Source: Candidatus Dojkabacteria bacterium
GTDB lineage: Bacteria; Patescibacteriota; Dojkabacteria; J137
Direction: 5' to 3'
NCBI GenBank assembly: GCA_025993875.1
Contig: JAMQHH010000001.1
Location: 2,785 to 66,784 of the forward strand
Length of the DNA: 64,000 nt
Part shown: piece by piece, positions 15,858 to 53,507 of the stretch
Numbering within the stretch: position 1 is the stretch's first letter
How the letters are laid out: each line of letters begins with the position of its first letter
Position numbers and translations under genes: made by a program
Notes under the pieces: generated by a model
Database searches by the model: none
What the model saw: only the letters and a program-made list of their open reading frames with translations
What the model was told of the DNA's origin: nothing

Positions 15858-16456
15858 TTGTATTCGGGGGTAACAATTAGTGAAATTTTGTTTAAAGGCC
15901 AGTATCTTAAAAGAGCTTTACCTTTTATCCAGCCTTTTTCTATAAAACCTATATCGGTGTATCTAGAATCGTGGCTGTTATTACGGTTATCACCCATTAC
16001 AAAATAATCACCTTCGGGAATTGTTTTTTCTACCCCCTCTTCTAAAAATGACCCTCCATTTGTTTTAATTTCAGAAGAGATATAATCTTCGGTAATCAGA
16101 TTTTCGTTTATATAGACTTTTCCATTTCTAAGCATTATAGTTTCACCCGGCAGTCCAATTATCCTTTTTATAAGATCTTTATATCCCGGTTTTTGAAAAA
16201 CTATTACGTCGCCCCTGTTATATCCCAGCCCAATAGATTTGCCAAACAAAGTGTCGCCCAGCCATAAAGATATTTTATTGGTTAAGATTATTTGACCGTT
16301 TTCGAAAGTCGGATTCATCGAAATCCCGTCTATCTGGTTAGGTGTAGCAATAAAAATATATACAAAAACACAAATGGCAATAGCTACAACAACAGATTGC
16401 AGAAACTCTACAAAGGGATTAATTTTTTTTGTTGTCGCGTCCGAGCTTGTATTCAT
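15854..16456 (-). CDS. lepB: signal peptidase I
   Basis: GISMNPTF (catalytic Ser), RIIGLPGE, and the GDNRNNSHDSRY box. N-terminal TM anchor. Confidence 0.85.
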   Translation of the reverse strand: MNTSSDATTKKINPFVEFLQSVVVAIAICVFVYIFIATPNQIDGISMNPTFENGQIILTNKISLWLGDTLFGKSIGLGYNRGDVIVFQKPGYKDLIKRIIGLPGETIMLRNGKVYINENLITEDYISSEIKTNGGSFLEEGVEKTIPEGDYFVMGDNRNNSHDSRYTDIGFIEKGWIKGKALLRYWPLNKISLIVTPEYN

Positions 16457-19431
16457 TAAGTTCTGTTAAGTTTTAGTTTAATACCGCTATTGCCTAGTTT
16501 GGCTTCCGAGATATCGCTATCAAAGCTCTGCATTATCTTTAGATCGATTAGTCCTGTTTTCTCTTTTATTTCATTCTCAAACTTTATTATTGCAGCCCTT
16601 ATCATTTCATCCTCTGTAAAATATTCTGCAATAACAGATTCACCCTGAATAAATTTTCTATTTTTTCTCTCCGCTTGGATTACCCTTATTATCTCTCTTA
16701 AAAGCCCCTTTTCGGCTAATTCCTGGGTAATTTCGATGTTTAATCCAACTTTGATTTTTTGAGCCAAATCTTCTGCTACTTCCAGTTTATCACCCTTTAA
16801 TATATTTTGAGAATTGGCTACCGTTAAAACGTTTAATTCTTTGGAAATCAGCTCTTCCATCCACGGTGCCAGAGCAGGGAGATTAGGATTAGTGCTTTCA
16901 ACCAATAGCTCCGACAATGGTTGCCTTACTTTTAATTGCTTTTGCGTTCGTATAGAATGGCCCAATTCGCAAATACTTTGTATAACTTTCATTTCAGCTT
17001 CCATATTGGAATACTGGTCTAAAAATTTTGCATCGAATTTTGGATAATCGCAAAGGTGGATAGATATTGGGATGTTTGTACCGTGCTTTCCCGCAAGCTC
17101 GCCATAAATATATTCGGTTATAAATGGAACAAAGGGAGCTGCAAGCTTTAAAATCTCTATAATTACATAATACAGTGTTGATAGTGCATCTATATCTCCC
17201 TCTGCAAATCTATCTCGGGATCTTCGAATATACCATTTCGATAAACTGTCTAAAAATTCTTTGATTGTTCTTCCTGCTCTGGGAATCTCAAAATTTTCCA
17301 TATACAGGGAGCACTCCTTTATTGTTTTTTGCAGCATTACTAAAATCCATGCATCAAGCTCATCATCGATATCATCAAAAGGTATGTGGTCCCATGGATG
17401 ATCATCGGAGTTCTTTCGTGCGTTTCCAGCTAACGATTCGTCGAATTCAAAATTATGTAAGTTAGCATATGTTACAAAAAATGAATAAATATTCCAAAGA
17501 GGAATCATAAACTCCTGAGCATAAATTTTTAGGCTTTTAGTACTTACTGTTGCATCCTCTCCACCCGCAATCGGGGATAAAAAGAAGTTTAAACGAACTG
17601 TGTCGGCGCCAAATTCCTTTATTAAAATCTCTGGCTCAACGTAGTTTTTTTTGCTTTTGCTTAACTTTGCCCCATCGTCTGCTAAAATTGTCCCGTTTAC
17701 TACAACGTTTTTGTATGGTTCTTTGTTAAATAAAGCAGTAGAAATTGCTAAAAGAGAGTAGAACCAGCCTCGGGTTTGATCCACACCTTCGGCAATGTAT
17801 TCGGCAGGAAATTTTTTTTCGAACTTCTCTTTGTTTTCAAAGGGATAGTGAAACCTAGCAAATGGCATTGCTCCCGAATCGTACCATACATCTATAACAT
17901 CTGGAACACGAGAGTAAAATTCACCATCGTGCTCAAAAGTAATATCATCTACATAAGGTTTGTGTGGATCGGTAATCTCTTTTCCTGAATAACCTTTAAG
18001 TTCCTCAAATGAACCAATTACAATTACCTTGCCGCTTTGAGATTTCCATATAGGTAAGGGCGTACCCCAGTATCTGGACCTGGAAATCCCCCAATCTTTT
18101 ATTTCGGCAAGCCAGTTACCAAATCTACCTTCTTTTATATGTTTGGGAGACCAATTAATTCTGGAATTATTTTCTACTAATTGGCTTCGTAGACTACTCA
18201 TTTTAATGTACCAGGATGTTATTGGCTTATAAATAAGTGGAGTGTTTGTTCTCCAGCACATAGGCATATCGTGAGTATAGTCTTCGTGTTTAAATAATCT
18301 TCCTATGTTTTTTAAATCTTCAATAATCTTTGAATTTGCCTCTCTATAATTCAATCCATGGTATGCTGGTATTTTTACGGTAAAATCTCCCTGATCGTCC
18401 AATACATCTATGGAAACAATACCAATCTCTTTAAATATTTCGTTATCCTCTTCCCCATATGGAGCCAAATGAACAATCCCTGTGCCATTTTCGGTGTTAA
18501 CATGAAATCCTTCTACAATTACAAAGCAATTTTTTTTGCCTTCAAAAAAATTAAATAATGGAATGTATTTTTTTCCGATTAATTCAGAAATATTGATATT
18601 TCTTTCTATTGAATAATCATGACCTGAAAAAATTTGTTCTACCAGTTTACTTGCAACAATATATTTTTTTCCTGTAGTTTTTTCTAAAACTACAACATAT
18701 TCAATCTCTTTCCCCAATGCTAGGGCAAAATTAGTTGGCAGTGTCCATGGAGTAGTGGTCCAGGCTAAAAGCGATGTGCTTGGATCGTCTGCTAAAGGAA
18801 ACTCTACAGTAACGCCGGGATCGGTAAAACTCTTATATCCGCCCAGTGCCACTTCGGCATTAGATAGGGTTGTTCCGGCTCTTGTAGAGTAGGGCACCAC
18901 TTTAAAACCCTCGTATAAAAGACCTTTACTGTAAATTTCCTTTAAAGACCACCAAATTGACTCTATGTAATTTTTATCCATGGTGGCGTATTCCTCTTCG
19001 CTATTTGTTAGCCTGCCAATTAACTCCTCAAGTTCAACAATTTTTCCTCTTCTTTCTATAACCAATTCTTTGCACATTTGATTAAATTTTTCGACCCCAA
19101 GTTCTTCTATATCCCTTTTTTCTTTAAATCCAAGATTTTTTTCAATTTCGTATTCGACCGGCAAGCCCTGGCAGTCCCATCCTAAACTTCGTGAAACTTT
19201 ATAGCCCTGCATTGTCCAAAATCGAGGGTAAAGATCTTTCATCGAAAAGGTTAGAGCATGGCCAATATGAGGGTCACCATTTGCAGTTATTGGACCATCG
19301 TAAAATGTCTTGGTGTTTTCTCCGCTACGGTTTTCAATAGATTTTTTGAGAATAGTGTTTTCTTTCCACCATTTTAGTATCTCACTTTCGAGTTCAGAAA
19401 ATTTTGGTTGAGCTACAGGCTTTGTGAACAT
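16456..19431 (-). CDS. ileS: isoleucyl-tRNA synthetase
   Basis: HIGH motif PITANGDPHIGHALT and WDCQGLPVE. KMSKS-like KLSKSKKN. About 990 aa. The start is taken at MFTKPVAQPKF; the ORF-track N-terminal extension is rejected. Confidence 0.85.
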   Translation of the reverse strand: MFTKPVAQPKFSELESEILKWWKENTILKKSIENRSGENTKTFYDGPITANGDPHIGHALTFSMKDLYPRFWTMQGYKVSRSLGWDCQGLPVEYEIEKNLGFKEKRDIEELGVEKFNQMCKELVIERRGKIVELEELIGRLTNSEEEYATMDKNYIESIWWSLKEIYSKGLLYEGFKVVPYSTRAGTTLSNAEVALGGYKSFTDPGVTVEFPLADDPSTSLLAWTTTPWTLPTNFALALGKEIEYVVVLEKTTGKKYIVASKLVEQIFSGHDYSIERNINISELIGKKYIPLFNFFEGKKNCFVIVEGFHVNTENGTGIVHLAPYGEEDNEIFKEIGIVSIDVLDDQGDFTVKIPAYHGLNYREANSKIIEDLKNIGRLFKHEDYTHDMPMCWRTNTPLIYKPITSWYIKMSSLRSQLVENNSRINWSPKHIKEGRFGNWLAEIKDWGISRSRYWGTPLPIWKSQSGKVIVIGSFEELKGYSGKEITDPHKPYVDDITFEHDGEFYSRVPDVIDVWYDSGAMPFARFHYPFENKEKFEKKFPAEYIAEGVDQTRGWFYSLLAISTALFNKEPYKNVVVNGTILADDGAKLSKSKKNYVEPEILIKEFGADTVRLNFFLSPIAGGEDATVSTKSLKIYAQEFMIPLWNIYSFFVTYANLHNFEFDESLAGNARKNSDDHPWDHIPFDDIDDELDAWILVMLQKTIKECSLYMENFEIPRAGRTIKEFLDSLSKWYIRRSRDRFAEGDIDALSTLYYVIIEILKLAAPFVPFITEYIYGELAGKHGTNIPISIHLCDYPKFDAKFLDQYSNMEAEMKVIQSICELGHSIRTQKQLKVRQPLSELLVESTNPNLPALAPWMEELISKELNVLTVANSQNILKGDKLEVAEDLAQKIKVGLNIEITQELAEKGLLREIIRVIQAERKNRKFIQGESVIAEYFTEDEMIRAAIIKFENEIKEKTGLIDLKIMQSFDSDISEAKLGNSGIKLKLNRT

Positions 19432-30040: not shown

Positions 30041-30475
30041 GGGGATGTTTTTCGACGGTTTCCAATTGCTCTTTAAAACAAGCCGGGAATTTAATTGCTT
30101 GTCCCGTAAAAATAAGTAATTACTTTGACTAAACGTCAATCCAATTACCAAGGTATTTAACAGCGCAGTTAATGCTGTTGCAAATTTATTTGCAAAACCA
30201 GCTTTAGCTTTTGCTTAAGTTAAATGCTGCAGCCCGAAAAAAAAGTAGAGCTGCCGTTGTATAACTTTTTTCTCTGCGAAGGTTTTACGGCGAAATATAG
30301 CAGAGGTGCTTTATCTAATTTTTAATTTCTTTTATTTAGGTAAAAAAGACTATAAAGGAAACAAGATAGAGTTTTTGTAGATTTTTATTCTACCTTGTAA
30401 ATAAATCTAATAAGCTTGTAATAATTTTATCGGCAAAAGTTTTCCGGACATCCCGTATAGGGATCATCTCCACCA
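30041..30475 (+). ncRNA. ssrA: tmRNA (SsrA), one-piece
   Basis: 5' GGGGATGTTTTTCGACGG resembles the E. coli tmRNA 5' end GGGGCUGAUUCUGGAUUCGACGG. The 3' ...CATCTCCACCA pairs with the 5' end to give a 7-bp acceptor stem with encoded CCA. The internal frame GCA AAT TTA TTT GCA AAA CCA GCT TTA GCT TTT GCT TAA (ANLFAKPALAFA*) looks like a degradation tag. Confidence 0.75.
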
Positions 30476-30557: not shown

Positions 30558-31391
30558 ATGGATATATTTGGAATTTTGTTCTATCAGCCGGTTTATAACC
30601 TTTTGGTTATTTTTTATAGAGCGTTTTCGGAAAACCTTGGACTTTCTATTATACTAATTGCTTTAATTTCTAGGCTTATTTCGCTTCCCTTTACGCTAAA
30701 ACAGGCAAAGCTAATGGAATCGAGTAAAGAGATGAACGAAAGAATAAAAAAAATTAAGGAAAAGTACAAAAACGATAAGCAAAAACAGCAGGAAGAAATG
30801 GTAAAAATTCAGTCGGAATATTTACCCGCGCAGCTTTCGGGATGCCTGCCTTTAATAATTCAGTTTATCCTTTTAATTAATATTTATCACGTTATAAGCG
30901 ATATAATTTTAAAAGGTGTAACCAGCTTTAACAATGTAGCATACGGGTTTGTTCCCACTTTCAGCGAAGGATTTACATTAAACACAAAGTTTTTAAATAT
31001 TTTGGATTTAACAAAAACACCGGGGAACTCGGGATTAACTGGAATTGATGTTTTGCCTTATGTAGTAGTAATAGCTCTTGTTGCATTAACTCAGTTTTAT
31101 TCGATGAGGCTTTCCATGCCAAAATCGGCACCCGTAAAGAAAAAAGATGCAAACGAAAAGAGTATAAAGAATAAGGAGAACCCCGCAACTGAGGATTTTT
31201 CCGAGATTATGCAACAAACAAGCAAGAATATGGCAATAATGTTTCCGGTAATGATTGGGTTGTTATCTTTAAATTTTCCGGTTGGATTAAGTTTGTACTG
31301 GATTGCGCAAAGCACATTTGTTATAATTCAACAGCTTATTTTAAAGCGTAACAGAGATAGAAATTTATCTCCCGGTTTAGGTATTAAATAA
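30558..31391 (+). CDS. yidC: membrane protein insertase YidC (short Gram-positive/Oxa1-like form)
   Basis: ~277 aa with 5 TM helices and a conserved first helix (NLGLSIILIALISRLISLPFTLKQ). A charged loop is followed by a basic C-terminal tail. Confidence 0.8.
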   Translation: MDIFGILFYQPVYNLLVIFYRAFSENLGLSIILIALISRLISLPFTLKQAKLMESSKEMNERIKKIKEKYKNDKQKQQEEMVKIQSEYLPAQLSGCLPLIIQFILLINIYHVISDIILKGVTSFNNVAYGFVPTFSEGFTLNTKFLNILDLTKTPGNSGLTGIDVLPYVVVIALVALTQFYSMRLSMPKSAPVKKKDANEKSIKNKENPATEDFSEIMQQTSKNMAIMFPVMIGLLSLNFPVGLSLYWIAQSTFVIIQQLILKRNRDRNLSPGLGIK

Positions 31392-32301: not shown

Positions 32302-33498
32302 ATGGATCCAACAGATAAAAATTCTGCGCAGGCAAATAAAAGCTTAAATATCTCCCCACTTGGTGCGGGGTACGATTCAACTTTGGAAATTGCCGAGTTA
32401 AGTGAAAGGGTAAAAAATTCAAATATTCCGGTTGATCTTAGAAGCAGAGCGGAAGCTATGATAATGCGCCTTGTTAAAATGACTCATCAAGGCAATTACT
32501 CTTCAGAATTTGAACCTGTTTCCGAATATATAAATTGGATAACGCAAATACCCTGGGAATTTGAATCCGAGGAAAATATAGATATCGAAAAAACAAAAGA
32601 GGAACTTGAACGGTATCATTACGGTTTAGAACCGGTAAAAACAAGATTATTGGAGTATCTTGCCGTATTAAAGCTTCAAAAGGAGATGCAGGTTCAAACA
32701 GCCGAAAAAGTGGCATCTGCTTCTACCGGATCTGCCGAGATGTCAAGGCTGCAGGGAAGTTCATCTCATGCGCCAATTCTATGTTTTGTGGGAATTCAGG
32801 GTGTAGGTAAAACTTCTATGGCAAAGTCAATCGCCAATGCTTTAAACCGTAAATTTGTCCGAATTGCTCTTGGAGGTTTAAGTTCGGCAACAGAACTTAG
32901 AGGTATACCAAAAGGAACAATAGGAGTTGCAGAACCTGGTCAAATAGTTAAATCACTTATAAGAACTAAGTCTATGAATCCTTTAATTTTACTCGATGAA
33001 ATAGATAAGGTAAGTAGCCAAACAGGTTTAAGAGCAGATGTAATGGCTGCCCTCCTGGAAATATTAGACCCCGAACAAAATTCCACCTTTATGGATAAAT
33101 ATATAGATTACCCAATAGATTTATCAAAATGCATGTTTATAACTACTGCAAATAATCTTGGCGGAATCTCCGCAGCACTTTTGGACAGACTGGAGGTTAT
33201 AAGGTTTGGGAGTTATACTGATAACGATAAAGTGATGATTGCTAAAAATTATTTGTTACCAAAAGTTAGAGAAGCAACAGGGATAACAAAAGAGCAATTG
33301 GATTTTGAAGACGATGTATGGCCACTGGTAATAAGACCTCTAGGTTTTGATGCTGGGGTAAGACAGCTCGAAAGAACACTAACTGAACTTGCAAGAAAGG
33401 TAGCATTACAGATAGTGAGGGGTGTTTTAAAAAGTGTTAAAATTACCAAAGATAATTTTAGACAATATATTCCGGAGGATATTGGAATATATAGTTAA
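32302..33498 (+). CDS. Lon-like AAA+ ATPase lacking LAN N-domain and S16 protease domain
   Basis: Aligns by eye to the E. coli Lon segment from the helical N-region (YINWITQIPWEF ~ YIDWMVQVPW; YHYGLEPVKTRLLEYLAV) through the whole AAA+ module (ILCFVGIQGVGKTSMAKSIA; LLDEIDK; ITTANN; LLDRLEVI). It stops before the protease domain, and the next gene is on the opposite strand. Confidence 0.7.
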   Translation: MDPTDKNSAQANKSLNISPLGAGYDSTLEIAELSERVKNSNIPVDLRSRAEAMIMRLVKMTHQGNYSSEFEPVSEYINWITQIPWEFESEENIDIEKTKEELERYHYGLEPVKTRLLEYLAVLKLQKEMQVQTAEKVASASTGSAEMSRLQGSSSHAPILCFVGIQGVGKTSMAKSIANALNRKFVRIALGGLSSATELRGIPKGTIGVAEPGQIVKSLIRTKSMNPLILLDEIDKVSSQTGLRADVMAALLEILDPEQNSTFMDKYIDYPIDLSKCMFITTANNLGGISAALLDRLEVIRFGSYTDNDKVMIAKNYLLPKVREATGITKEQLDFEDDVWPLVIRPLGFDAGVRQLERTLTELARKVALQIVRGVLKSVKITKDNFRQYIPEDIGIYS

Positions 33499-33512: not shown

Positions 33513-34064
33513 CTATTCCCCTCTAAACTCCTTATAATCTTTATCTTTTTTAATAAGCTGCTCAATTGCACCTCGTACAATCTGTGCTTTATGCATTCTT
33601 TTATGCTGGGAAGACCAGTCTAAATATCTTTCCATCTCTGCAGGTAATATTAAAATAAACTTGGAATCAAGCTTAGATGTAGCAACCTTTAATGCCTCTA
33701 AAATTTTTGCCTCGAGATTTTTTGTGGTATATAGAACCGAAACAACATTTTTGTTGCCACTAAATTGATTTGGAATCGAACTACTGTCTATTTTTTCGAG
33801 GGAAAATAGCACAACAATCTTTTTTTCGTCTAAAGCTCTTGCAATTTCAAATCCCGACTTAAAATCCGAAATTGAACACTCGACCACTAAAATATCCGTT
33901 TCCTTTATTAATTTTTCAATTTTATCGTGAGACTTAGCAGAGGGCTTTTCGATAGCTGTGTCGTTTAAATTGTGCCCAACCTTTTTTAATAAAGAAAATT
34001 TTTCAACAAATTTTTTGAAACTTTGGTCTTTGCTGTTTAATGGGGAAGAGATTAGAATCTTCAT
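33513..34064 (-). CDS. hypothetical protein; possible nucleoside-2-deoxyribosyltransferase/LOG-like Rossmann domain fused to C-terminal ribbon-helix-helix
   Basis: ILVVECSISDFKSGFEIARALDEKKIVVLF resembles the NDT-family D.GT.FE.G.A...KP block. The C-terminal FILILPAEMERYLDWSSQHKRMHKAQIVRGAIEQLI has an RHH-like beta-alpha-alpha pattern. Weak evidence. Confidence 0.35.
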   Translation of the reverse strand: MKILISSPLNSKDQSFKKFVEKFSLLKKVGHNLNDTAIEKPSAKSHDKIEKLIKETDILVVECSISDFKSGFEIARALDEKKIVVLFSLEKIDSSSIPNQFSGNKNVVSVLYTTKNLEAKILEALKVATSKLDSKFILILPAEMERYLDWSSQHKRMHKAQIVRGAIEQLIKKDKDYKEFRGE

Positions 34065-34194: not shown

Positions 34195-35424
34195 ATGCTT
34201 AATTTTTTTAAAAAGAAAAATTTTCCTCTTCCGGTATCTGCAGAGGAATTATTTTTGGCAATAGATATTGGTACAGAGTATGTAAAGGTAGCTGTTTATA
34301 GGCTGGATGGAATGGAAGTTGAAGTTATAGGCTACGCCAGAAGAAAACAGATGGAGAGCACAATGTATGCTGCATATATTGTAAATTTAAAGGAGGCCAA
34401 AGATACAGTAGATAAATGCATAGGAGATGCAGTTTTAATGGCAAGAGAGGTTGTTTCAGAAGATAATTTTAGTTTGCCAAAACAGGCAATTATCGGAATC
34501 GCCGGTGAACTTGTTCAGGGAGTTACAGTGGTTGTTAATCTCGAAAGAAACGCTCCCGATACTCCTATTAATCAATCAGAGATAGATTCGATTATCGCAA
34601 AACTTAAAAAACAGACTTTCGAAAGTACAAAAGAAGAGATATCTCAAGAAATAGGACTTAAGCCTAATCAAATTGACGAAATTGATACTTATATCAATAG
34701 CGTATATGTCGACGGAGTTAGAGTCTTAAATCCTCTGGGATATGTAGGAAGCGAGATGGTTTATAATATGTATTCCACCTTTGCACCAAAACTGCATATA
34801 AATAGTGTAAAGCAGCTTGCAGAACAGCTTAATTTATCTATTTTAAAGCTGGTAGTAGAGCCTTATGCTTTATCCCTTGCTTTAAAAGATATTAGAGACA
34901 AAAATGCGAGCTCAATTCTTTTAGATATAGGAGGCGGCACAACTGATGTTGCACTTGTTCATAACGGTGATTTGGCAGGTACAAAAATGTTTGCTATTGG
35001 AGGAAGGGTATTTACAAAAAGCATTCAAAAATATTTAAATCTCGATTTTGATCAGGCCGAACAGATAAAATTAGATTATTCAAACAATAAAGTTGATTCA
35101 GAAAGAAAAAGAGAGGTTTCTACAATAATCGGAAACTCCACAAAGATCTGGCTGGATGGTGTTGAGATAGCGTTATCCGACTTTGACGATGTTACAACTT
35201 TCCCTGCAAAATTTTTGGTTTGTGGAGGGGGTGCATTATTACCCGATATTCAAGAGGGGCTAATTTCTTATCCATGGCAAAACTATCTGCCTTTTCCTAA
35301 ACATCCGAAAGTAGATTTTATTTTTCCTAATCATATAACTAAATTAACCGATAAAACCAGAACTGCAACATTGCCTATGGATGTAACACCATTGGCTTTG
35401 GCTCGAATGCATCTGGAAATTTAA
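34195..35424 (+). CDS. actin-like ATPase of the FtsA/PilM family (second copy; PilM-like)
   Basis: LFLAIDIGTEYVKVAVY phosphate-1 and ILLDIGGGTTDVALV phosphate-2 motifs. The short basic N-terminal leader resembles PilM. Distinct from the ftsA at 5213. Confidence 0.65.
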   Translation: MLNFFKKKNFPLPVSAEELFLAIDIGTEYVKVAVYRLDGMEVEVIGYARRKQMESTMYAAYIVNLKEAKDTVDKCIGDAVLMAREVVSEDNFSLPKQAIIGIAGELVQGVTVVVNLERNAPDTPINQSEIDSIIAKLKKQTFESTKEEISQEIGLKPNQIDEIDTYINSVYVDGVRVLNPLGYVGSEMVYNMYSTFAPKLHINSVKQLAEQLNLSILKLVVEPYALSLALKDIRDKNASSILLDIGGGTTDVALVHNGDLAGTKMFAIGGRVFTKSIQKYLNLDFDQAEQIKLDYSNNKVDSERKREVSTIIGNSTKIWLDGVEIALSDFDDVTTFPAKFLVCGGGALLPDIQEGLISYPWQNYLPFPKHPKVDFIFPNHITKLTDKTRTATLPMDVTPLALARMHLEI

Positions 35425-35429
35425 AACAT

Positions 35430-37406
35430 ATGTCAGTAGTTTTAACAGATAAAATATTTGTAGACCCAAACGATGAAGTTCTTTTTGTAATTGATGCCGT
35501 AAATTCGAAAGAACGGGATAAAGTAATAATTATTATTCCGGAGAACGCATTAATTTTAAGCAGTTTTATAACTTTAAAAATTCTTTATAGAGAAATTATC
35601 AGGTCCAAAAAGATTGTTATAGTGGTAACTGAAGACTCGTTTGGGTTGAATATTGCTCAAAAAGCTGGCTTTGTCGCAGTGCAAAAAGTTTCTCAAATAA
35701 CCGAAGAGCTTTGGGATATAGCGTTTAGTAAAAAAATTAAGGCGCAGGATTTTTTAAGAAACAAAAATAAAAATATCGGTACACCTAGCGAAGACCCTAA
35801 CCTAAAAGAGACACAAGATCGATCTTTTGTTTCGTTACCCACAGAAAAAACCGAAGAGTTGCCACAAGAGATAACAAAACAAGTGAAAGATGAGCAAGAA
35901 GTATCGGATACTAATAAATTTAAGGTCCTACCTAAAAAAATTATAAATATAAATGGGATAGAAGTAATGGTGGGAGGAGATATCGCTTTGTTATCAAATT
36001 CTGCCGAACATGATAAAATAGAGAAAGAGTACGTCGACAGAAATTTTATGAACAAACAGGAGACTGATAAAGTAAGCTCTGGTAAGTTTACCGGGAGGGA
36101 TTTTACAAAAATCGTTAAAAAAGAAAACTTTTGGACAAGATTAAAAAAAGGAAGAAGACCAAATAGAGCAGCTATTTTGGATCCGGATGCTTTGTTTAAC
36201 AAAAGGCAGCAGCGCCAAAAAATATTAAGTAGAATAGGAATAATCTTGGTGGTTGTGTTGGGCGGCGTTTTTACTGCCTGGTTTTTAATTGATAACTATT
36301 CTTCAGTAGATATTCATGCTACCGTAAAGCCTGAAGGTGTAAAAGAGCTTGCTCCGGTGCAAATAACAGGAAGTATATTCGAAACACAACTAAATTTAGA
36401 AGAAAAAATAATACCTGTTGTTGAATATACAGTCGAAAACGTAAGTGCTTCTCGTACAGGTGATGCAACCGGGCAGGGCACAAGAGGCACAAAAGCTCGT
36501 GGTCTTGTTACTATTTATAATACATATACAGAACCAGATCCACAGCCGATTTCTTTACCTGCTGGCACTAAAATAACTAATATCGGCTCTAATTTGGTGT
36601 TTGTTTTATTATCTGATCTTGTGCTGGATGCTCCGGTAAAAGACGGATCGGGTATTTACAACACTCCGTTAATTGAAGATATCGAGGTAGAGGCTTTTGA
36701 AATTGGAGAAAAGTACAATCTTCTTGGAGAAGGTGCATCAAATAACTTTTTGGTAGATGGCTACGAATCTTCTAAAATTAGGGTAACTAAATTTACCCCA
36801 TTTGCAGGAGGAACTTCCGAAAGCTTTGTCTCTGTTTCTAAAGAAAATATCGACAATTTAAAGAAAACTTTTTACGAGGACTTAAAAAAACAAGCTGAAT
36901 CTAGAATCGTTAATCTTATCCCACAGGGTTTTACTTTGTTGGAAGGAAGTATTTTAATAAGCGATGAAAAAATTGAATCCTCCCCAAAGGAGTCAGAGGA
37001 GGCTCCCGATAAGACTTTTAACTTAAACCTTTCGCTAAAAGCCAGAGGATATGCCGTAAGAACAGACTATATAAATTCTATGGCAAGATCTTTACTACTC
37101 TTAACGAAAAGTGATAAAGATAATATCGATATCGAAGAGATAAAAGAAGCAAATATTACTTTTGTCTCAGAAGCTGATAACAAGATTTTAATCTCACTGG
37201 CTTCTAAGGGATCTTTTAAAAACATTGTTGATAAAGATATGCTAAAAAATTCGATTGTTAACAAGTCTTTTGAAGAGGCTAAAGCGATTTTAAAGGGGAA
37301 CCCAGATTTATCGGATGTTAGAATCATATATACGCCATTCTTTGTACCTCAGTTTCTTCAACGTATTCCCTGGTCGGTAAATAGAATTACGGTTACATTA
37401 AACTAA
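35430..37406 (+). CDS. bitopic membrane protein (cytoplasmic N-domain, one TM, ~370-aa extracytoplasmic domain), hypothetical
   Basis: Lies 5 nt downstream of the PilM-like gene. Has a single hydrophobic helix (IGIILVVVLGGVFTAWFLI) around residue 265. Confidence 0.5.
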   Translation: MSVVLTDKIFVDPNDEVLFVIDAVNSKERDKVIIIIPENALILSSFITLKILYREIIRSKKIVIVVTEDSFGLNIAQKAGFVAVQKVSQITEELWDIAFSKKIKAQDFLRNKNKNIGTPSEDPNLKETQDRSFVSLPTEKTEELPQEITKQVKDEQEVSDTNKFKVLPKKIININGIEVMVGGDIALLSNSAEHDKIEKEYVDRNFMNKQETDKVSSGKFTGRDFTKIVKKENFWTRLKKGRRPNRAAILDPDALFNKRQQRQKILSRIGIILVVVLGGVFTAWFLIDNYSSVDIHATVKPEGVKELAPVQITGSIFETQLNLEEKIIPVVEYTVENVSASRTGDATGQGTRGTKARGLVTIYNTYTEPDPQPISLPAGTKITNIGSNLVFVLLSDLVLDAPVKDGSGIYNTPLIEDIEVEAFEIGEKYNLLGEGASNNFLVDGYESSKIRVTKFTPFAGGTSESFVSVSKENIDNLKKTFYEDLKKQAESRIVNLIPQGFTLLEGSILISDEKIESSPKESEEAPDKTFNLNLSLKARGYAVRTDYINSMARSLLLLTKSDKDNIDIEEIKEANITFVSEADNKILISLASKGSFKNIVDKDMLKNSIVNKSFEEAKAILKGNPDLSDVRIIYTPFFVPQFLQRIPWSVNRITVTLN

Positions 37407-39570: not shown

Positions 39571-39933
39571 TTGCACAAAAAATTTATGAGAATAATAATA
39601 GTAAACTATTTTACCTGGTGGTATTTGTTTGTTGTAAAAAAAGCTTTTACAACTTTAGTTTTTAACCCCTTTGTTTTTTCACTCTATAAAACGAAGACAT
39701 TGCCTATGCTTAAAAATTTTTCTGTCCCTTTATTTAGAAGTACAGAGTGGGGTGGAAAATATTTTAGCTTTTTTATTAGGTCTTGTTGGATAATTTTGGG
39801 AACCGCCATTTCATTTTTAAAAGTTATTCCGGGGTTATTTTTTTGGCTGGCAATAACTTTCGTTCCAGTTTTGATCTGGTTGCAGGTTATAAATTTTTTG
39901 ATTATTAATATCAATGGAGCTACTAAAAGATAA
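39571..39933 (+). CDS. small multi-TM membrane protein, hypothetical
   Basis: 120-aa ORF with ~3 hydrophobic helices. Overlaps the start of the Clp ATPase gene. Confidence 0.35.
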   Translation: MHKKFMRIIIVNYFTWWYLFVVKKAFTTLVFNPFVFSLYKTKTLPMLKNFSVPLFRSTEWGGKYFSFFIRSCWIILGTAISFLKVIPGLFFWLAITFVPVLIWLQVINFLIININGATKR

Positions 39934-42505: not shown

Positions 42506-42925
42506 ATGAAAAAAAATATTGTATCACTAGGATTTTCGGTTTTGATTTGTGGAGTATTATTATTTTCCCCGACGCAATATGTATCGGCTCAACAGCCGTC
42601 TGTCACTACAACAATAGCTGCAGGATTGGATAATTTAAATTATAAAATTCCTTGCCCAACAGTTTTTTGTTCGCTGGAAGATGTAGTAAATGCTGCAGCC
42701 AATTTGATAAGGCCAATATTCGTACTAACTTTTATTGCTATGTTAATTTATGGAGCATGGCTATGGCTTACATCACAAGGGGACGATAAAAAGCTCGGTA
42801 CGGCAAAAAAAGTAATTATTGCTGCAATTATAGGTTTTGCACTGGCTGTTTTTGCACCTACAATAGCACAGTTTATTGGCGGGCTTTTAGGGGTAAGTAA
42901 TGTATTTTCGTTACCAACAACATAA
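42506..42925 (+). CDS. secreted two-helix membrane protein, VirB2/TrbC pilin-like (paralog 1)
   Basis: Sec signal peptide ending VSA|QQ. Cys pair CPTVFC. TM1, loop SQGDDKKLGTAKK, then TM2. Confidence 0.6.
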   Translation: MKKNIVSLGFSVLICGVLLFSPTQYVSAQQPSVTTTIAAGLDNLNYKIPCPTVFCSLEDVVNAAANLIRPIFVLTFIAMLIYGAWLWLTSQGDDKKLGTAKKVIIAAIIGFALAVFAPTIAQFIGGLLGVSNVFSLPTT

Positions 42926-42927
42926 AT

Positions 42928-43581
42928 ATGTTTAAAAAAATAACTGCTACAATTACAATGCTCATTACTGCAATATTTTTGGTCACTTCTTTGGAGGTAT
43001 ATGCTCAGCCGGCAAACACTAATCAAACAGGCCAAGGCTCATGCGAGGGTGATCCCTATAAAATACCTGCACAATGCGAGGATAATTTTGTAATTGATCA
43101 GGAATGCCAGACAATTAAAATTTTAAGCCCGCAAAGTGAACAGGCAAGAACCTGCTGCCTTCATAAGTGTAAAGATGAACAGACTTCCGTAACAGGAAAT
43201 ACCGATAATATTTTAGATCAAAAGGATCTTTCTTTCTTAAATGTTTTTGGAGTAAGGCTTGGACTGGATTTTTCGGAGTCCGGCCGAACAAAAACAATTA
43301 CCACGTTAATTAATCTTGTTATTACAACAATTCTTGGAATATTTTCTATGTATGCACTTTTTAGAGGAGTTTACCTTGTGGCAATACAAAGGCCTGTTTT
43401 AATAAAACCCGAAGATATTTCTAAGTTAAACAAACAATTTACAAGTTTAATTGTAGGGTTTGTTTTGGCCTGGGGTATAATTTTTATAATTCAGGTAGTG
43501 TTTGCATTTTTGGGGCTAGGCAGCTTAACAGACTTTAATTTCGAAAACGCAGCAAACGGTATAACAATAACTATTAAGTAA
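42928..43581 (+). CDS. secreted Cys-rich ectodomain + two-helix pilin-like protein (paralog 2)
   Basis: Signal peptide ending VYA|QP. A 7-Cys N-terminal module followed by two TM helices. Confidence 0.55.
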   Translation: MFKKITATITMLITAIFLVTSLEVYAQPANTNQTGQGSCEGDPYKIPAQCEDNFVIDQECQTIKILSPQSEQARTCCLHKCKDEQTSVTGNTDNILDQKDLSFLNVFGVRLGLDFSESGRTKTITTLINLVITTILGIFSMYALFRGVYLVAIQRPVLIKPEDISKLNKQFTSLIVGFVLAWGIIFIIQVVFAFLGLGSLTDFNFENAANGITITIK

Positions 43582-43593
43582 GTAATTATTAAA

Positions 43594-44196
43594 ATGAAAA
43601 AACATTTACTTTCTATATTGTTTTTTATTTTGGCTGCCTTAGCTGCAGGAGCTTTTCCCATTGCTTATGCGCAATCAACAGAAAATAATATTGATATTGG
43701 TTTGCCCGAAGTTGCAATAAGTCCGATTACAATCCCTCTTTTTGGCGCACCAATCGATTTAGGAAATTTTTCAATATACTCCTGGGCAGTATTTTTGGGA
43801 GGAATTATCTTTGCCCTAATTATTGCTTATTGGATATTTTTGTTTTTAAGAGCAGGGGTAGAGGCAATGCAAAGTAATGGAAAACCCGAAGTTTTAGCCG
43901 ATGCAGGCAAAAAGGCAAGATCAATTTTAATTTCGGCTGCATTAACTTTTTTAGTGCCAATTATTTTAAGTGTAATTGGAGCTATTATGGGTATAGGCAA
44001 CGTTTTGGCATGGCCAAAGATGTTTAGTTTGTGCAACACCAAGGTTAGGCAATATATTGATGAAAATGGAGATCTCTCAACCGTATTCGATTCTCCTGCA
44101 GGCAAGAGTTTCTATTTTCAATATTATATTGAAAATCCAGATACTGCCGATTCAAATTGTTTTGCAGATTTAGGTAATAAATCTATTTATAGATAA
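43594..44196 (+). CDS. secreted two-helix pilin-like protein with C-terminal Cys-containing tail (paralog 3)
   Basis: Signal peptide ending AYA|QS. TM1, loop RAGVEAMQSNGKPEVLADAGKK, then TM2. C-terminal ~60 aa carry 2 Cys. Confidence 0.55.
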   Translation: MKKHLLSILFFILAALAAGAFPIAYAQSTENNIDIGLPEVAISPITIPLFGAPIDLGNFSIYSWAVFLGGIIFALIIAYWIFLFLRAGVEAMQSNGKPEVLADAGKKARSILISAALTFLVPIILSVIGAIMGIGNVLAWPKMFSLCNTKVRQYIDENGDLSTVFDSPAGKSFYFQYYIENPDTADSNCFADLGNKSIYR

Positions 44197-44209
44197 ATAA
44201 TTCGTATTT

Positions 44210-44656
44210 ATGAATAATATTGAAGTATTAAAAAGAATAAAAATAACTTGCATTTTTCTTTTGATGCTTATTACCCCTTTAACTTTGTCAACAGCTGTAT
44301 ATGCTCAAACCGATTCCACCTCTTTATGTGGGCTTTTCCCATGCGATCAATACACCCAGGACAGCAAAAATATAGATGTTGGATCTTTAATTAAATTTGG
44401 TTTAAGTGCTGTATTTGTTGCAATTATAATTATTGGAATTTTTTCGGTAATTAGAGCTGCTTTAAAAATAATTCAAAGTGAGGGAGACCCTAAAAAACTG
44501 GAGGAGGGAACAAATGTTTTAAAGGGAGTATGGTTTGGGCTGGTTATTATCTTTTTGGGGGTATTTGGGATAATTTTTATATTAATATTTTTTAATGCCC
44601 AGGGGGCAGCAGATCCAAATACAAACCTGCCACCTGGAGTTTTAACAAATCCGTAA
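44210..44656 (+). CDS. secreted two-helix pilin-like protein (paralog 4)
   Basis: Signal peptide ending VYA|QT. LCGLFPC Cys pair. TM1, loop IQSEGDPKKLEEG, then TM2. Confidence 0.6.
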   Translation: MNNIEVLKRIKITCIFLLMLITPLTLSTAVYAQTDSTSLCGLFPCDQYTQDSKNIDVGSLIKFGLSAVFVAIIIIGIFSVIRAALKIIQSEGDPKKLEEGTNVLKGVWFGLVIIFLGVFGIIFILIFFNAQGAADPNTNLPPGVLTNP

Positions 44657-44733
44657 TTTAAGTTAAACTATTGACTGTAGTAATTTATAATGATAAATTC
44701 AGAGGAGAATATATATAAATATTTAAAATTAGT

Positions 44734-45204
44734 ATGAAAAAAATTGCTCTTTCGGTGTTATTTCTTGCCATTTCGTTTTTTTCTATGCCTTTCCCTGTTT
44801 CTGCTGCAGGTACAAATAATCTTGTCTGCCAAATCTTTCCATTCTTAAGTTCAGTAGATGCATTTGGCATAAACTCTCTTTGCAGTGGTGTTACTGATCC
44901 TTCTGCGGCAACAAGTTTTATAAGATTTTTACTATCAGCAGTATTTGTTGGGATAATAATTATCTCAATCTATGTAGTAATCAAATCGGCATTAAAATAC
45001 ATACAAAGCGAAGGGGATGATAAAAAAATAGGAGAAGCAAGCAAAGCAATAAAAGCAGTGTTTATAGGTATAGCAGCTCTTTTTGTAGGAGTAATAGGAA
45101 TAATAATAGTGCTGGCATTTTTTAAGGCAACAGGGGCTTTAAAAACGGAAGATACACCAGACATAATTGATAACCTGCTAAGTACACCTTCACAATCGAA
45201 ATAA
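44734..45204 (+). CDS. secreted two-helix pilin-like protein (paralog 5)
   Basis: Signal peptide ending VSA|AG. VCQIFPF...LCSG Cys pair. TM1, loop IQSEGDDKKIGEASK, then TM2. Confidence 0.6.
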   Translation: MKKIALSVLFLAISFFSMPFPVSAAGTNNLVCQIFPFLSSVDAFGINSLCSGVTDPSAATSFIRFLLSAVFVGIIIISIYVVIKSALKYIQSEGDDKKIGEASKAIKAVFIGIAALFVGVIGIIIVLAFFKATGALKTEDTPDIIDNLLSTPSQSK

Positions 45205-45270
45205 GCACAGAGGTGATTCTGAGCCTTTTAAAACTTTTTTGAGGGCACTAAATAAGTATACAAAGATAAA

Positions 45271-46128
45271 TTGAAAAGAACTTTGCTGAAAACAATAAAA
45301 ACCGTTCCTTTTTCCCAATGGACAGGATTTAAGAAAAATTTTTTATTGCTACTTCTTTCTCTCTTATGTTTTATAAACTTTACGCAAACAGTTTCGGCCC
45401 AGTTTAGCAGCTCAGTTTTATCGGGTAACGATCCGGCCAGTTACGTTTGCCCGGGTGAAGATCCAGGCCTTCCGGTTAAAAGTGCAGACGATACTTGTAG
45501 TGCAGCAGACGGTAAATGTCGCACCCTGCCTTATTTGGATTCCACTTCTGGTTATTATGTTTGTAAATCAGACACCGGCATTGTAAGAGCAACACTAAAA
45601 GCTCCGCCATTGCAGCAACTTGAACTTTGGTTTAGAAGAATTTTGTATGCCATATGGGCAATTGTAGGATCTTTTTCTTTTGTTATGCTTATATACCTTG
45701 GTTATCAGTATATGATTCGCGGAGGAACAAGCGATCAGGAACTGGTAAAACTAAGAAAAGCGATTATTAATTACGTAGTTGGTTTTGCTTTAGTTTTTCT
45801 TTCTATTCCAATTTTAACTACCTTTTTTACAGTACTGGGAATAAATAAAAATGTAACTTGTTACGATGTGGCAATGCCTGGTTTTCAATTTTTCTTTTCG
45901 GAACTTTGCACTGATCCAAAGTATATACTTGTAAACGACCCATGCACATATTACGATAAAGCTGAGGGATATGCGTGCCCAGAAGTGGGAGAGACAGGTG
46001 TGAGGTGTATTATTAATCCTACGATTAACCCAACAGAGATACAATACAAATGTATATCAATAGAAGGATCATCTTCTGGCGCTGGAATTTGGAAACTAAT
46101 CGAAAGTGGAGTTCATGAAGAGTTTTAA
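45271..46128 (+). CDS. secreted Cys-rich two-helix pilin-like protein with Cys-rich C-terminal domain (paralog 6)
   Basis: Signal peptide ending VSA|QF. A 5-Cys N-module. TM1, loop RGGTSDQELVKLRK, then TM2. The ~95-aa C-terminal domain has 7 Cys. Confidence 0.55.
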   Translation: MKRTLLKTIKTVPFSQWTGFKKNFLLLLLSLLCFINFTQTVSAQFSSSVLSGNDPASYVCPGEDPGLPVKSADDTCSAADGKCRTLPYLDSTSGYYVCKSDTGIVRATLKAPPLQQLELWFRRILYAIWAIVGSFSFVMLIYLGYQYMIRGGTSDQELVKLRKAIINYVVGFALVFLSIPILTTFFTVLGINKNVTCYDVAMPGFQFFFSELCTDPKYILVNDPCTYYDKAEGYACPEVGETGVRCIINPTINPTEIQYKCISIEGSSSGAGIWKLIESGVHEEF

Positions 46129-46201
46129 GTTAAATTCAATTTATCTTGAACAATTTCCTTATCTGGCATAGAATAAAAGTAGCACTTAATTCTTTTTTGC
46201 T

Positions 46202-47806
46202 ATGCCTGTTTTAACCATAAAAAACTACAAAATAACCGATATTTTAGATAAAAGCCTCTTTACTACCAATTTTAGTTCTCCCATAAAATTAAAGCAGGAT
46301 GTTTTTTCTATACTTCAAAACGATCTTATATTTGTTTCTAATTTAAATCTTAATTTTTCAGTTAAAACATATTTAACTTTAGGTATAAATTTAGAAAATT
46401 CCGAAACAGAAATACAAATAGCTAAAAATTATAAAGAGAAGTCCTTTAAAATTACTCAAAACAATCAAGCTTTAGATACCGATCTTTTTAGCTTTCTGGA
46501 GCAAAAACTGGGTATAAAGTTTAAAGAGAAAAAACTTATCACTAAAATTTTTGATATATCGCATGAGGTTTTTAAGTCCAAAGAAGATGTGGCTAATTTT
46601 CTAAGTAAGTGTAAACCTAATTTGTTGGTGTTGAAAAACTATTCTGACACAAAAAATATTGATGACTTACTAAGTTCAGTTACCGAAGATAAAAAAGAAA
46701 AACTAAAAAAGGATGCCGAAAGTCTTGCCGATATTGAAGATCGCCAAATTAAAATCGAGAAAGGAATTGATCTTTATCAAAATGGTAAAAAGATTATCGA
46801 AACAAAAAATAAAGAAAAACAAACTCTTCAAAACGAGTTGGATGTATTAAGACAAAAGTTTTTATCAGTCGAGCATTTTGAGAAAAGACGCGCAGAGCTC
46901 GAACAAAGCATAAAAAGAATTGAAGTTGTTGGATCTGTCGAAAAGGTAGCAATCCTAAAAAAAGAGAGGTTAAATAAAATTATCGGATTTCTTAAGAATA
47001 TAAAATCTCGAGAACCTACCGCAGGCCCAAAATTTGATTGGGAAGATGAAATAGATAAAAGTTTTAGATCGATTAATGTACAAATTGCAGTTTTTGGTAT
47101 TTTACTTATAATTCAAATCATCTTTGGAATATTAACTTTAATCTTAAGTAGAGATGTAAAATCGTGGTTTTTTAGCCTTGCAATTTTTTTGTCCCTAATA
47201 ATCTTACTTATTATTTATAACTTATTAGGTCCCAAAACCTCTAAAAGAGTATTATTAAACTCCTTCGACGCAGGTTCCCAGGCTAAAATTCCCCAAGTTT
47301 CCTTTCTAACACAGGAAGATAAGATATTTGTAAACAATGCATATTTAAATGCTTACAGATCAGAATTAGAAACGATAAACAAAAGTATGCAAAAGGCTTT
47401 AGGGACAGATGGTTCTTTTATAGATCTAAAAGCTATGGTGCAAAGTACTGAAGGTAAATTAGTACAACTGGAAAATGAAATTAGTAAAATTAACCACGAT
47501 ATGTATACAACGGATGAATACTATAAGAAAAGACGAGAGCTTGATATACTAAAAATAGAAAAAGAAAATCTCGAATTTAGCTGGGGCAAGGAGGATCAGC
47601 CGTATCTTTCCCGGTTAAAAAGTGCCTTTAAAGAAACAAACGTGGGGCTAACTCTGTCCGAGCAGGGCACTCGTGTTTGGGAAGGATACCCGGTAGTAAT
47701 TACTGGGTGGCTAAGACTCTCTGATGGGTCTTTGCAAATTTTAAACGATTCAATAACCGAACTAAAAAACAAAGCTCAAATTTTACAACTTGATGTAGCA
47801 ATATAA
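46202..47806 (+). CDS. coiled-coil membrane protein (two central TM helices), hypothetical
   Basis: Extended heptad-like K/E-rich segments flank IAVFGILLIIQIIFGILTLIL and FFSLAIFLSLIILLIIYNLL. Confidence 0.5.
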   Translation: MPVLTIKNYKITDILDKSLFTTNFSSPIKLKQDVFSILQNDLIFVSNLNLNFSVKTYLTLGINLENSETEIQIAKNYKEKSFKITQNNQALDTDLFSFLEQKLGIKFKEKKLITKIFDISHEVFKSKEDVANFLSKCKPNLLVLKNYSDTKNIDDLLSSVTEDKKEKLKKDAESLADIEDRQIKIEKGIDLYQNGKKIIETKNKEKQTLQNELDVLRQKFLSVEHFEKRRAELEQSIKRIEVVGSVEKVAILKKERLNKIIGFLKNIKSREPTAGPKFDWEDEIDKSFRSINVQIAVFGILLIIQIIFGILTLILSRDVKSWFFSLAIFLSLIILLIIYNLLGPKTSKRVLLNSFDAGSQAKIPQVSFLTQEDKIFVNNAYLNAYRSELETINKSMQKALGTDGSFIDLKAMVQSTEGKLVQLENEISKINHDMYTTDEYYKKRRELDILKIEKENLEFSWGKEDQPYLSRLKSAFKETNVGLTLSEQGTRVWEGYPVVITGWLRLSDGSLQILNDSITELKNKAQILQLDVAI

Positions 47807-47807
47807 A

Positions 47808-49586: not shown

Positions 49587-49595
49587 GGTTTTTAT

Positions 49596-50339
49596 ATGAA
49601 TCCAGGGACACAAAAAAAACCGAATAATTTTTCCAATAATTCAAATAGCAGCCCTTCCGGTTCTTATCCTGCTGCACAACGATATACTCCTGAGCAGATT
49701 GCTTATATTCAAAGAAGAATGTATGTGCAGGAAATGGAAAAGGCAATTCCTCCAAAGTCCTCTAGCATATTGGGAACAATAGTTATAAGACCCAAAGGCA
49801 CCACATTTGGAACTCAAAATCCCGGGGAAAAGGTGTTTGTGCTGGTTAGAAGGCACTGGATAGCCAATGTTGGCTGGATATTTAGAAGTACATTATATCT
49901 ATTTATTCCATTTATAGTGGCTGCATTACTACCATTATTAGTAGACATTATAAATATAACAAATAACCCTGTGCCTTCGAGGATATGGATAATCATAATT
50001 GTTTCATATTATTCGGTAGTGCTAACTTTAACAATAAGAAATTTTGTAGAATGGTTTTACGATCTTTTAATTGTAACCAACCAAAGAATCTTGGATTACG
50101 AATTTAGCCCTTTTACAGGATATAATATAAAAGAGGCAGCTTTAGAAAATATTGAAGATATAAAGGAGGTTTCAAAAGATTTTTGGGGTGGTATATTTAG
50201 ATATGGAGATATCGAAGCGACAACTGCATCCAGCGAGGGAAAATTGAATTTCGATCAGGTACCTCATGTAACACTGGTCAGGGATATATTATCAGACTTA
50301 GCTAACATAGCCAAAAAATATAAGAAAAATGGAGATTAA
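49596..50339 (+). CDS. bPH_2/YdbT-like (DUF304-type) membrane protein
   Basis: Low-complexity N-terminus, two adjacent TM helices, then a PH-like beta domain (LIVTNQRILDY ... GDIEATTASSEGKLNFDQVPHV). Confidence 0.45.
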   Translation: MNPGTQKKPNNFSNNSNSSPSGSYPAAQRYTPEQIAYIQRRMYVQEMEKAIPPKSSSILGTIVIRPKGTTFGTQNPGEKVFVLVRRHWIANVGWIFRSTLYLFIPFIVAALLPLLVDIINITNNPVPSRIWIIIIVSYYSVVLTLTIRNFVEWFYDLLIVTNQRILDYEFSPFTGYNIKEAALENIEDIKEVSKDFWGGIFRYGDIEATTASSEGKLNFDQVPHVTLVRDILSDLANIAKKYKKNGD

Positions 50340-50544: not shown

Positions 50545-50545
50545 T

Positions 50546-53032: not shown

Positions 53033-53046
53033 TAATCTGTGTAAAT

Positions 53047-53505: not shown

Positions 53506-53507
53506 AT

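Follow-up and report, generated by a model that had tools for sequence, protein, structure and literature searches.

A protease-less Lon-like AAA+ ATPase from Candidatus Dojkabacteria and the patescibacterial family to which it belongs

The 64,000-nucleotide stretch of Candidatus Dojkabacteria DNA analyzed here (contig JAMQHH010000001.1 of assembly GCA_025993875.1, positions 2,785 to 66,784; hereafter, the window) encodes a relative of the Lon proteases that has no protease domain. The gene is complete and occupies 32302..33498 on the plus strand. The open reading frame (ORF) list, domain matches, an AlphaFold2 (AF2) model, and Foldseek comparisons all describe a protease-less Lon-like AAA+ ATPase of 398 aa plus stop, with an ATG start, which covers the pre-AAA helical neck, the AAA+ core, and the lid of LonA. 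The protein is one of a large family with the same layout and, on balance, we favor the view that it is a functional non-proteolytic, ring-forming, ATP-hydrolyzing remodeler, chaperone, or adaptor that would serve a housekeeping process.

An earlier, sequence-only reading of the window had described a Lon neck plus AAA+ module without the LAN and S16 domains, and this description is borne out by Pfam, NCBIfam, Protein Data Bank (PDB) matches, and dedicated domain models. Pfam matches the 398-aa protein to AAA (residues 160-301) and Lon_lid (residues 324-375), while LON_substr_bdg (PF02190, LAN) and Lon_C (PF05362, S16) are both unmatched. The NCBIfam lon equivalog model TIGR00763 aligns over model positions 244-571 of 795 only and gives 363 bits, which falls below the equivalog cut-off of 608. 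The best PDB sequence matches are human LONP1 and bacterial LonA (phmmer E ~1e-74, identity ~40%), and their alignments end at query residue 392 of 398, where the LonA protease domain begins, just as the same reading had proposed. Hidden Markov models (HMMs) of the S16 and LAN domains, built from nine canonical LonA proteins, were run against the six-frame translations of the 64-kb window and of six orthologous loci, and no match had an E-value below 1; a cryptic or frameshifted protease or LAN domain was rejected on this basis. It had also been argued that the missing domain is not simply split off next door, and we agree, since these HMMs are empty throughout the window and the ORF that follows (33513..34064, minus strand) is convergent, so that no co-directional protease gene lies directly downstream.

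The AF2 model, computed on the family alignment, has a mean predicted local distance difference test (pLDDT) score of 88.7 and a predicted template modeling (TM) score of 0.84, and is divided into a disordered tail (1-24), a neck (26-140), a poorly defined stretch (~141-157), an alpha/beta AAA+ core (159-301), and a helical lid (307-396). Its top Foldseek matches in the PDB are all LonA, namely LONP1, yeast Pim1, and the Yersinia, E. coli, Thermus, and Meiothermus proteins (TM 0.72-0.77 over ~360-378 columns), and TM reaches 0.87, normalized to the target of 338 modeled residues, for 6N2I, an engineered AAA+ piece of E. coli Lon. Where LonA has its LAN domain, this protein has an N-terminal tail (residues 1-25, 32302..32376, plus strand) that is predicted to be disordered (pLDDT <50 for residues 1-20) and, in the alignment, differs in length and sequence among orthologs; some relatives extend it by as much as ~300 aa of Q/P-rich sequence. 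The helical neck (residues 26-140, 32377..32721, plus strand) corresponds by homology to the end portion of the pre-AAA region of LonA, a three-helix bundle plus a long helix; TIGR00763 aligns from its position 244 and the LONP1 alignment covers residues 33-127. Neck helices are modeled at residues 26-39, 44-63, 67-82, 95-105, and 110-140, and PW and HYG motifs are conserved within the neck. Relative to most LonA, the alignment places a 30-residue insertion at residues 128-157 (32683..32772, plus strand), ahead of the AAA+ core; it ends in a conserved LQGSSSHAP and its distal part (141-157) is modeled at low confidence (pLDDT 58-73 at residues 141-160). By LonA alignment and the Lon_lid match, the Lon-type lid, or small alpha subdomain, spans residues 304-398 (33211..33495, plus strand), and the protein stops at the linker that in LonA leads into the S16 domain, i.e. 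the boundary between the ATPase and protease (A/P) domains.

The motor itself is a complete LonA-type AAA+ module with Walker A and B, sensor-1 Asn, Arg finger, sensor-2 Arg, and Lon lid, and the three motifs quoted in the sequence-only reading are all present as given. Walker A, located by motif search and alignment, is GIQGVGKTS (residues 164-172, 32791..32817, plus strand), with a family-wide signature of G[ILV]QG[VI]GKT[ST] in place of the LonA GPPGVGKTS. Walker B is ILLDEIDK (residues 229-236, 32986..33009, plus strand). The alignment further locates sensor-1 ITTANN (residues 280-285, with N284) and the trans-acting Arg finger motif LLDRLEV (residues 293-299, with R296) within 33139..33198 on the plus strand, as well as sensor-2 GVRQLER at residues 352-358, with R354 lying within PLGFDAGVRQLER. 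In an 80-sequence family alignment G164, G167, G169, K170, and T171 of Walker A, D232 and E233 of Walker B, N284, D295, R296, and R354 are all invariant; the E. coli LonA equivalents of N284, R296, and R354 are N473, R484, and R542 (PMC9569914). The spacing between the Walker A Lys and Walker B Asp is also close to that of LonA, with 61 residues between K170 and D232 compared to 60 in LonA and 82 in LonBA (PMC9569914); the extra residue lies in pore-loop 1. Judged from these residues, the nucleotide-binding and hydrolysis apparatus of the protease-less Lon family is intact.

The segments facing the substrate channel of LonA are altered in the same proteins. Positions conserved at 90% or more in LonA yet replaced in the family cluster at the Walker A GPPG prolines, which become [ILV]Q, at H, R, Y, and G of pore-loop 1, and at G and P of pore-loop 2, with further changes in the pre-sensor-2 loop, where the YTRE of LonA becomes LGFD. 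By alignment and residue counts, the pore-loop 1 region (ELRGIPKGTIGVAEPGQ, 32893..32943, plus strand) reads IPKGTIGV-AEPG in the window protein, with no aromatic left, against HRRTY[IV]G-A[LM]PG in LonA. The pore-loop-1 Tyr is present in 200 of 200 canonical LonA proteins, whereas the same position among 249 family members is occupied by E (63), S (45), N (31), F (28), Y (23), Q (17), T (10), and others, leaving an aromatic in 51 of the 249. The A[LM]PG that follows in LonA is AEPG in 202 family members and SEPG in 29, and an acidic D-AEPG motif appears in place of the LonA sequence. Pore-loop 2, assessed in the same manner (VSSQTGLRADVMA, 33010..33048, plus strand), reads QTGLRADV and is likewise devoid of aromatics, as the aromatic residue before the RGDP of LonA is lost and GDP has become ADV; an aromatic occurs here in 175 of 200 canonical LonA proteins versus 3 of 260 family members. 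In the Meiothermus enzyme MtaLonA, Tyr397 of pore-loop 1 and Trp431 of pore-loop 2 contact the substrate and both are needed for degradation (PMC8503904). With the ATPase residues kept and the gripping residues replaced, the ATP-burning parts of the motor are conserved and the polypeptide-gripping parts were rebuilt alongside the loss of the protease. Since both pore-loop aromatics are replaced and the loops are acidic (D/G-AEPG), the protein of this Dojkabacteria lineage probably does not thread substrates in the classical manner.

The family is both widespread and under strong constraint. The identical protein is encoded on at least 24 contigs from independent samples, and a search of 5.8 billion proteins yielded at least 120 clusters at 56-94% identity, nearly all of 375-415 aa and none with Lon_C, the named ones being annotated "AAA family ATPase [Candidatus Dojkabacteria bacterium]". 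Among 50%-identity representatives, which were searched exhaustively, there were additional members at 42-57% identity whose C-termini lie only a few residues from the shared end point, and a profile of the distant members retrieves 1079 proteins, of which the named ones belong to Dojkabacteria, the "Patescibacteria group", and Candidatus Nomurabacteria. Altogether, hundreds of orthologs of ~320-450 aa and 34-94% identity share the C-terminal end point and lack Lon_C, which shows that the truncation is a conserved trait, a matter that the sequence-only reading had set as a check along with the ratio of nonsynonymous to synonymous substitutions (dN/dS). In codon alignments with two close orthologs, dN/dS is 0.036 (dS 0.82) and 0.059. 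The genome pair giving 0.036 has corresponding ratios of 0.047 (rplY), 0.048 (ftsA-like gene), 0.058 (convergent ORF), and 0.071 (yidC). Purifying selection therefore acts on the Lon-like gene about as strongly as on the housekeeping genes next to it, or more so.

A neighbor-joining (NJ) tree of the shared neck and AAA+ region of 57 family members and 40 canonical LonA proteins separates the two groups in 50 of 50 bootstraps. Mean identity is 0.57 inside the family and 0.40 to LonA (maximum 0.48). Such a consistent split points to a single ancient loss rather than repeated decay, and by this sequence comparison the LAN and S16 domains were lost once, early in the history of the family. The family is monophyletic, LonA-derived, and so far seen only in the Patescibacteria, or Candidate Phyla Radiation (CPR). 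We define it by a length of ~320-450 aa ending at the Lon lid, a Walker A of the form G[ILV][QAV]G.GKT, [AS]EPG after pore-loop 1, and placement in a clade apart from LonA; the window protein has every one of these features. Six loci (L013-L018) encode family members with a GL[VA]GTGKTT Walker A and no S16 within 6 kb. Five of them are titled "uncultured Gammaproteobacteria" or "uncultured Pseudomonadales bacterium", and L017 only "bacterium"; most have Patescibacteria-like neighbors (pnp, rnj and/or ftsK; groES/EL in L018). Either these taxonomic labels, which look doubtful, are wrong, or else the family reaches beyond the CPR.

The genomic surroundings of the family were surveyed in a wider sample of 129 loci, obtained by matching a DNA pattern that encodes D-AEPGQI[IV]K, a motif specific to the family, against metagenome contigs and adding the loci collected earlier. 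Median pairwise identity among the 129 is 0.50, with a minimum of 0.34. None of them has an S16 domain within the flanking sequence covered, and no neighboring peptidase gene is conserved among them. Polynucleotide phosphorylase (PNPase) is encoded upstream on the same strand in 59 of the 59 loci containing it (46 of the 66 loci with enough flank; gap of at most 300 bp in 31), and RNase J downstream on the same strand in 47 of 47 (29 of the 59 with enough flank; gap of at most 300 bp in 24). FtsK likewise follows on the same strand in 37 loci (24 of the 43 with enough flank; gap of at most 300 bp in 19). A family-4 uracil-DNA glycosylase gene (udg) is often found between the Lon-like gene and rnj, and Pfam labels place rpsO, infB, and nusA further upstream, giving a common order of nusA-infB-x-rpsO-pnp-[gene]-(udg)-rnj-ftsK. 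The Dojkabacteria, in which the gene sits elsewhere, have an arrangement derived from this common pnp-[gene]-rnj one. Accordingly, the contexts of the family are core chromosomal, housekeeping, and vertically inherited, and they are not defense islands. The family-specific motif had no match in 2.9 million viral contigs, while the best PADLOC match of the protein was to DolB (44.5 bits, E 3e-12), the other PADLOC matches being generic.

Canonical LonA is also encoded within the CPR. A Candidatus Gottesmanbacteria locus (L036, 2705-5122) carries a full-length LonA with LAN, GPPGVGKTS, HRRTYVG, and PKDGPSAG, and in Gottesmanbacteria the gene order is suf operon-PFOR-lonA-greA...secA, not pnp-rnj. 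Because the canonical form is present in Gottesmanbacteria and Microgenomates and the family in Dojkabacteria and Nomurabacteria, the CPR as a whole has both Lon types; among the matches listed, the named canonical and named family matches have no lineage in common. An origin of the family by truncation of a canonical lonA gene in place is unsupported given the different contexts, suf-PFOR-lonA-greA and not pnp-rnj, although a divergent member of the family (L009) is located close to suf genes. In the L036 LonA, an insertion of ~20 residues separates the neck helix from the first AAA+ strand, at the same site as the 30-residue insertion of the family; this common position hints that the canonical and protease-less forms may share a CPR ancestry.

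Several inferences can be made regarding how such a protein might function. The invariant trans-acting Arg finger and Walker B Glu suggest a Lon-like ring that would hydrolyze ATP, since an Arg finger is useful only at a subunit interface. On its own, the family protein would not degrade proteins; rather, it would perform ATP-driven remodeling without proteolysis, as a chaperone or an ATP-dependent adaptor. Proteolytically inactive yeast Lon (Pim1) still aids membrane-complex assembly and, together with the LonC proteins discussed below, it provides a precedent for uncoupled Lon modules. A number of points weigh against a non-proteolytic remodeler. Conserved residues are what suggest ring formation and ATPase activity, and isolated LonA AAA+ fragments hexamerize poorly without the protease domain, which makes stable ring assembly less certain. 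Roughly a fifth of the family keeps Phe or Tyr at the pore-loop-1 Tyr position, so the loss of threading is not generalizable to the family as a whole and some lineages may still translocate polypeptides. In addition, the S16 search covers the window and the locus flanks, and a trans-acting S16 protein or a second canonical Lon may be encoded elsewhere. A protein search finds canonical LonA widespread in Gottesmanbacteria and Microgenomates.

The conserved linkage with RNA-decay genes suggests a narrower form of the remodeler reading, in which the protein is an RNA-decay or ribosome-linked ATPase that works with PNPase and RNase J or acts on ribosomal proteins or trans-translation products, for example by RNA-protein remodeling. 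We regard this as unlikely. The invariable position and orientation of PNPase and RNase J wherever they occur at family loci speaks for it, as does the persistence of this linkage among members only 34-50% identical and the presence of tmRNA and ribosomal protein L25 upstream in the window. However, nusA-infB-rpsO-pnp and pnp...rnj...ftsK are old gene orders found in other bacteria as well (the B. subtilis order is pnpA...rnjB-tepA-spoIIIE), and the adjacency may therefore be inherited synteny rather than a sign of shared function. The gene has, moreover, moved away from pnp and rnj in the Dojkabacteria, a pore lined by the acidic D and E of D-AEPG would be unfavorable for threading RNA, and Pfam detects no RNA-binding domain in the 398-aa protein. 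A bolder version, to which we give a similarly small chance, can be built upon the rpsO-pnp-[gene]-rnj operon of most lineages and the tmRNA-yidC-rplY arrangement seen here: a CPR-specific housekeeping motor attached to the RNA-decay or ribosome-rescue apparatus, perhaps extracting or remodeling basic ribosomal or RNA-binding proteins through its acidic pore. If true, this would place the protein in a functional class new among AAA+ machines, as opposed to making it a chaperone form of Lon.

It is distinctly unlikely, in our estimation, that the protein is one half of a split Lon, whose ATPase docks onto a separately encoded S16 protease or other peptidase ring and powers proteolysis in trans. 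Stand-alone Lon_C-type proteins do exist in bacteria generally, the protein ends at the exact A/P domain boundary, and its ATPase machinery is intact. Nevertheless, neither the 64-kb window nor the flanks of the 129 family loci yielded S16 or LAN sequence, a conserved peptidase gene is missing from the neighbors of the family loci, and the Dojkabacteria lineage has lost the residues that in MtaLonA serve to translocate substrate into the protease chamber (PMC8503904). The occurrence of canonical LonA in some CPR lineages, along with the retention of the Arg finger and ring-interface motifs, would be compatible with a modulator, i.e. a truncated subunit that adjusts the activity of a full-length LonA from another locus by assembling with it or capping it. 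This seems very improbable, as identity to LonA is only 40%, the canonical lonA context is different and unlinked, and canonical LonA is named in Gottesmanbacteria and Microgenomates but the family in Dojkabacteria and Nomurabacteria, although this lack of overlap among the matches listed is weak evidence. The sequence-only reading had offered a protease-less Lon-like ATPase acting as an adaptor or regulator in defense systems. The first half of that proposal stands, given the conservation and selection described above. As for the second, Lon-like domains do occur in BREX BrxL, and there is the weak PADLOC match to DolB. This match reflects generic AAA+ similarity, considering that the lon model scores 363 bits, and the neighbors are yidC, rplY, ftsA-like, and groES/EL or pnp, rnj, and ftsK rather than defense genes. 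With synteny stable and inheritance vertical over deep divergence, and with viral contigs devoid of the family motif, we see hardly any prospect of an anti-phage component. The same reading had equally entertained a decaying pseudogene, or an assembly or sequencing error masking a full-length lon. The absence of the two terminal domains is the sole point in favor of either, whereas recovery of the identical protein from many independent assemblies, hundreds of intact orthologs of the same length, dN/dS values of 0.036-0.06, and invariant catalytic residues refute both, to the point that their probability is practically nil.

In comparison with known systems, the family most closely resembles LonA (TIGR00763, MEROPS S16; E. 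coli Lon, B. subtilis LonA, LONP1), with which it shares the three-helix bundle of the neck, the alpha/beta core, the Lon lid, sensor-1, the Arg finger, sensor-2, and approximately the Walker A-B spacing. It differs in lacking LAN and the S16 Ser-Lys domain, in having GIQG for GPPG and LGFD for YTRE, and in the loss of the pore-loop motifs. The same domain content as in the natural protein is found in E. coli Lon 235-584 (PDB 6N2I), except that 6N2I is a laboratory truncation and has canonical pore loops. The family also does not fit LonB or LonBA, since the window protein has no S16, no membrane-anchor insertion or enlarged pore-loop 1, and a LonA-like spacing. LonC of Meiothermus taiwanensis is a Lon-like protease that is active while its ATPase is dead (PMC3391209, PMC13069640). 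Like the family, it is a Lon relative that has given up one of two coupled activities and indicates that the modules can work uncoupled; however, it is the mirror image, as the family keeps the ATPase and has no protease. ClpB/Hsp104 D2 and ClpX without ClpP, from the HCLR clade, are ring ATPases that remodel without degradation and may serve as a working analogy, although they keep aromatic pore loops and thread polypeptides; the window protein lacks these aromatics and has no ClpB middle domain and no ClpP-docking loop at the position found in ClpX. A ClpP partner was considered on account of a conserved LGF (residues 347-349) and rejected, because this motif lies in the lid sensor-2 loop and not at the docking-loop position of ClpX. 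Finally, BrxL and DolB resemble the family in using a Lon-related or generic AAA+ module outside classical proteolysis, but the family shows no significant family-level match to them, has no defense neighborhood, and sits at a core housekeeping site. Lon diversity extends in other directions as well: four database proteins (P0122, P0124, P0126, P0139) have two or three tandem AAA plus Lon_lid modules followed by a single S16, and P0139, from Candidatus Babeliales, has N-terminal ankyrin repeats in addition. To our knowledge, this multi-ring Lon architecture has not been described in the literature.

Within the window, the gene order is tmRNA-yidC-rplY-[gene]...ftsA-like-groES/EL. The transfer-messenger RNA (tmRNA) at 30041-30475 (plus strand; Rfam RF00023, model positions 1-374, 57.7 bits against a gathering score of 47) is full length, has a comF-like gene on one side and yidC on the other, and precedes the Lon-like gene by 1.8 kb; it was not reported by ARAGORN and may therefore be atypical. 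The genes yidC (30558-31391, plus strand) and rplY, for L25 (31405-32058, plus strand), were assigned from the Pfam labels of an identical locus (L001). The convergent ORF on the other side encodes 183 aa, is conserved in Dojkabacteria according to the ORF list and orthologs of 171-195 aa, and has its stop codon 14 nt from that of the Lon-like gene. It has no Pfam, NCBIfam, or PADLOC match, and its dN/dS of 0.058 indicates purifying selection; it is not demonstrably part of a Lon-like system. Across the Dojkabacteria the order is yidC-rplY-[gene]-0-2 small ORFs-convergent 171-195-aa ORF-ftsA-like-~700-aa ORF, followed by groES-groEL-ClpB/ClpC-like ATPase in three of the four lineages examined, the window included. 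In the window the FtsA/PilM-like actin-fold gene (409 aa) and a 658-aa ORF without a domain match occupy 34195-37406 on the plus strand; this pair is kept in Dojkabacteria and occurs in shortened form in a distant locus (L008), where the FtsA-like gene begins 91 bp past the Lon-like gene.

Other features of the region are noted for completeness. At one Dojkabacteria locus (L005), a divergent gene of the CLP_protease family (15989-16588) is flanked by groEL and the gene for the ClpB/ClpC-like ATPase; the counterpart site in the window holds a 120-aa ORF (39571-39933), and no ClpP-like ORF was found anywhere in the 64 kb. FtsH is encoded 26 kb downstream of the Lon-like gene. A co-directional run at 42506-56546 (plus strand), comprising small ORFs resembling type IV secretion system pilins, ORFs of 838 aa and 534 aa without domain matches, and a TraG/VirB4-like ORF of 817 aa, resembles a gene cluster for type IV secretion or a pilus-like structure. 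At 12 other family loci, the Lon-like gene is faced by a convergent gene for a TraG P-loop ATPase. Position 56607-56680 (plus strand) of the window holds a tRNA-Ile whose anticodon, TAT (UAU), represents a solution for decoding AUA that is uncommon among bacteria; two tRNA-Met (CAT) genes are nearby, at 58116-58189 and 59192-59267.

According to a review of the field, all Lon proteases consist of an ATPase domain followed by a protease domain in a single chain (PMC9569914). A full-text literature search of incomplete coverage turned up no account of a natural Lon clade that lacks the protease, nor of Lon in Patescibacteria. The family described here is a natural, ancient, and strongly selected exception to the ATPase-plus-protease rule. 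Its public annotation is inconsistent, with members appearing as "ATP-dependent Lon protease", "Lon protease 1", and "AAA family ATPase"; for this family the first of these names is wrong and the last uninformative. It should come as a surprise to Lon and AAA+ specialists, yet domain loss in reduced genomes is not unusual and the function proposed is one that we infer. The protein also provides a defined target for biochemistry and electron cryomicroscopy in organisms whose proteostasis and RNA turnover are poorly known. For the Patescibacteria, the gene belongs to the core genome of at least two named lineages with reduced genomes, the Dojkabacteria and Nomurabacteria. For the Lon family, it suggests that the LonA motor can be retained for work that does not involve supplying a protease with substrate, its pore loops having been rebuilt when the protease was lost.

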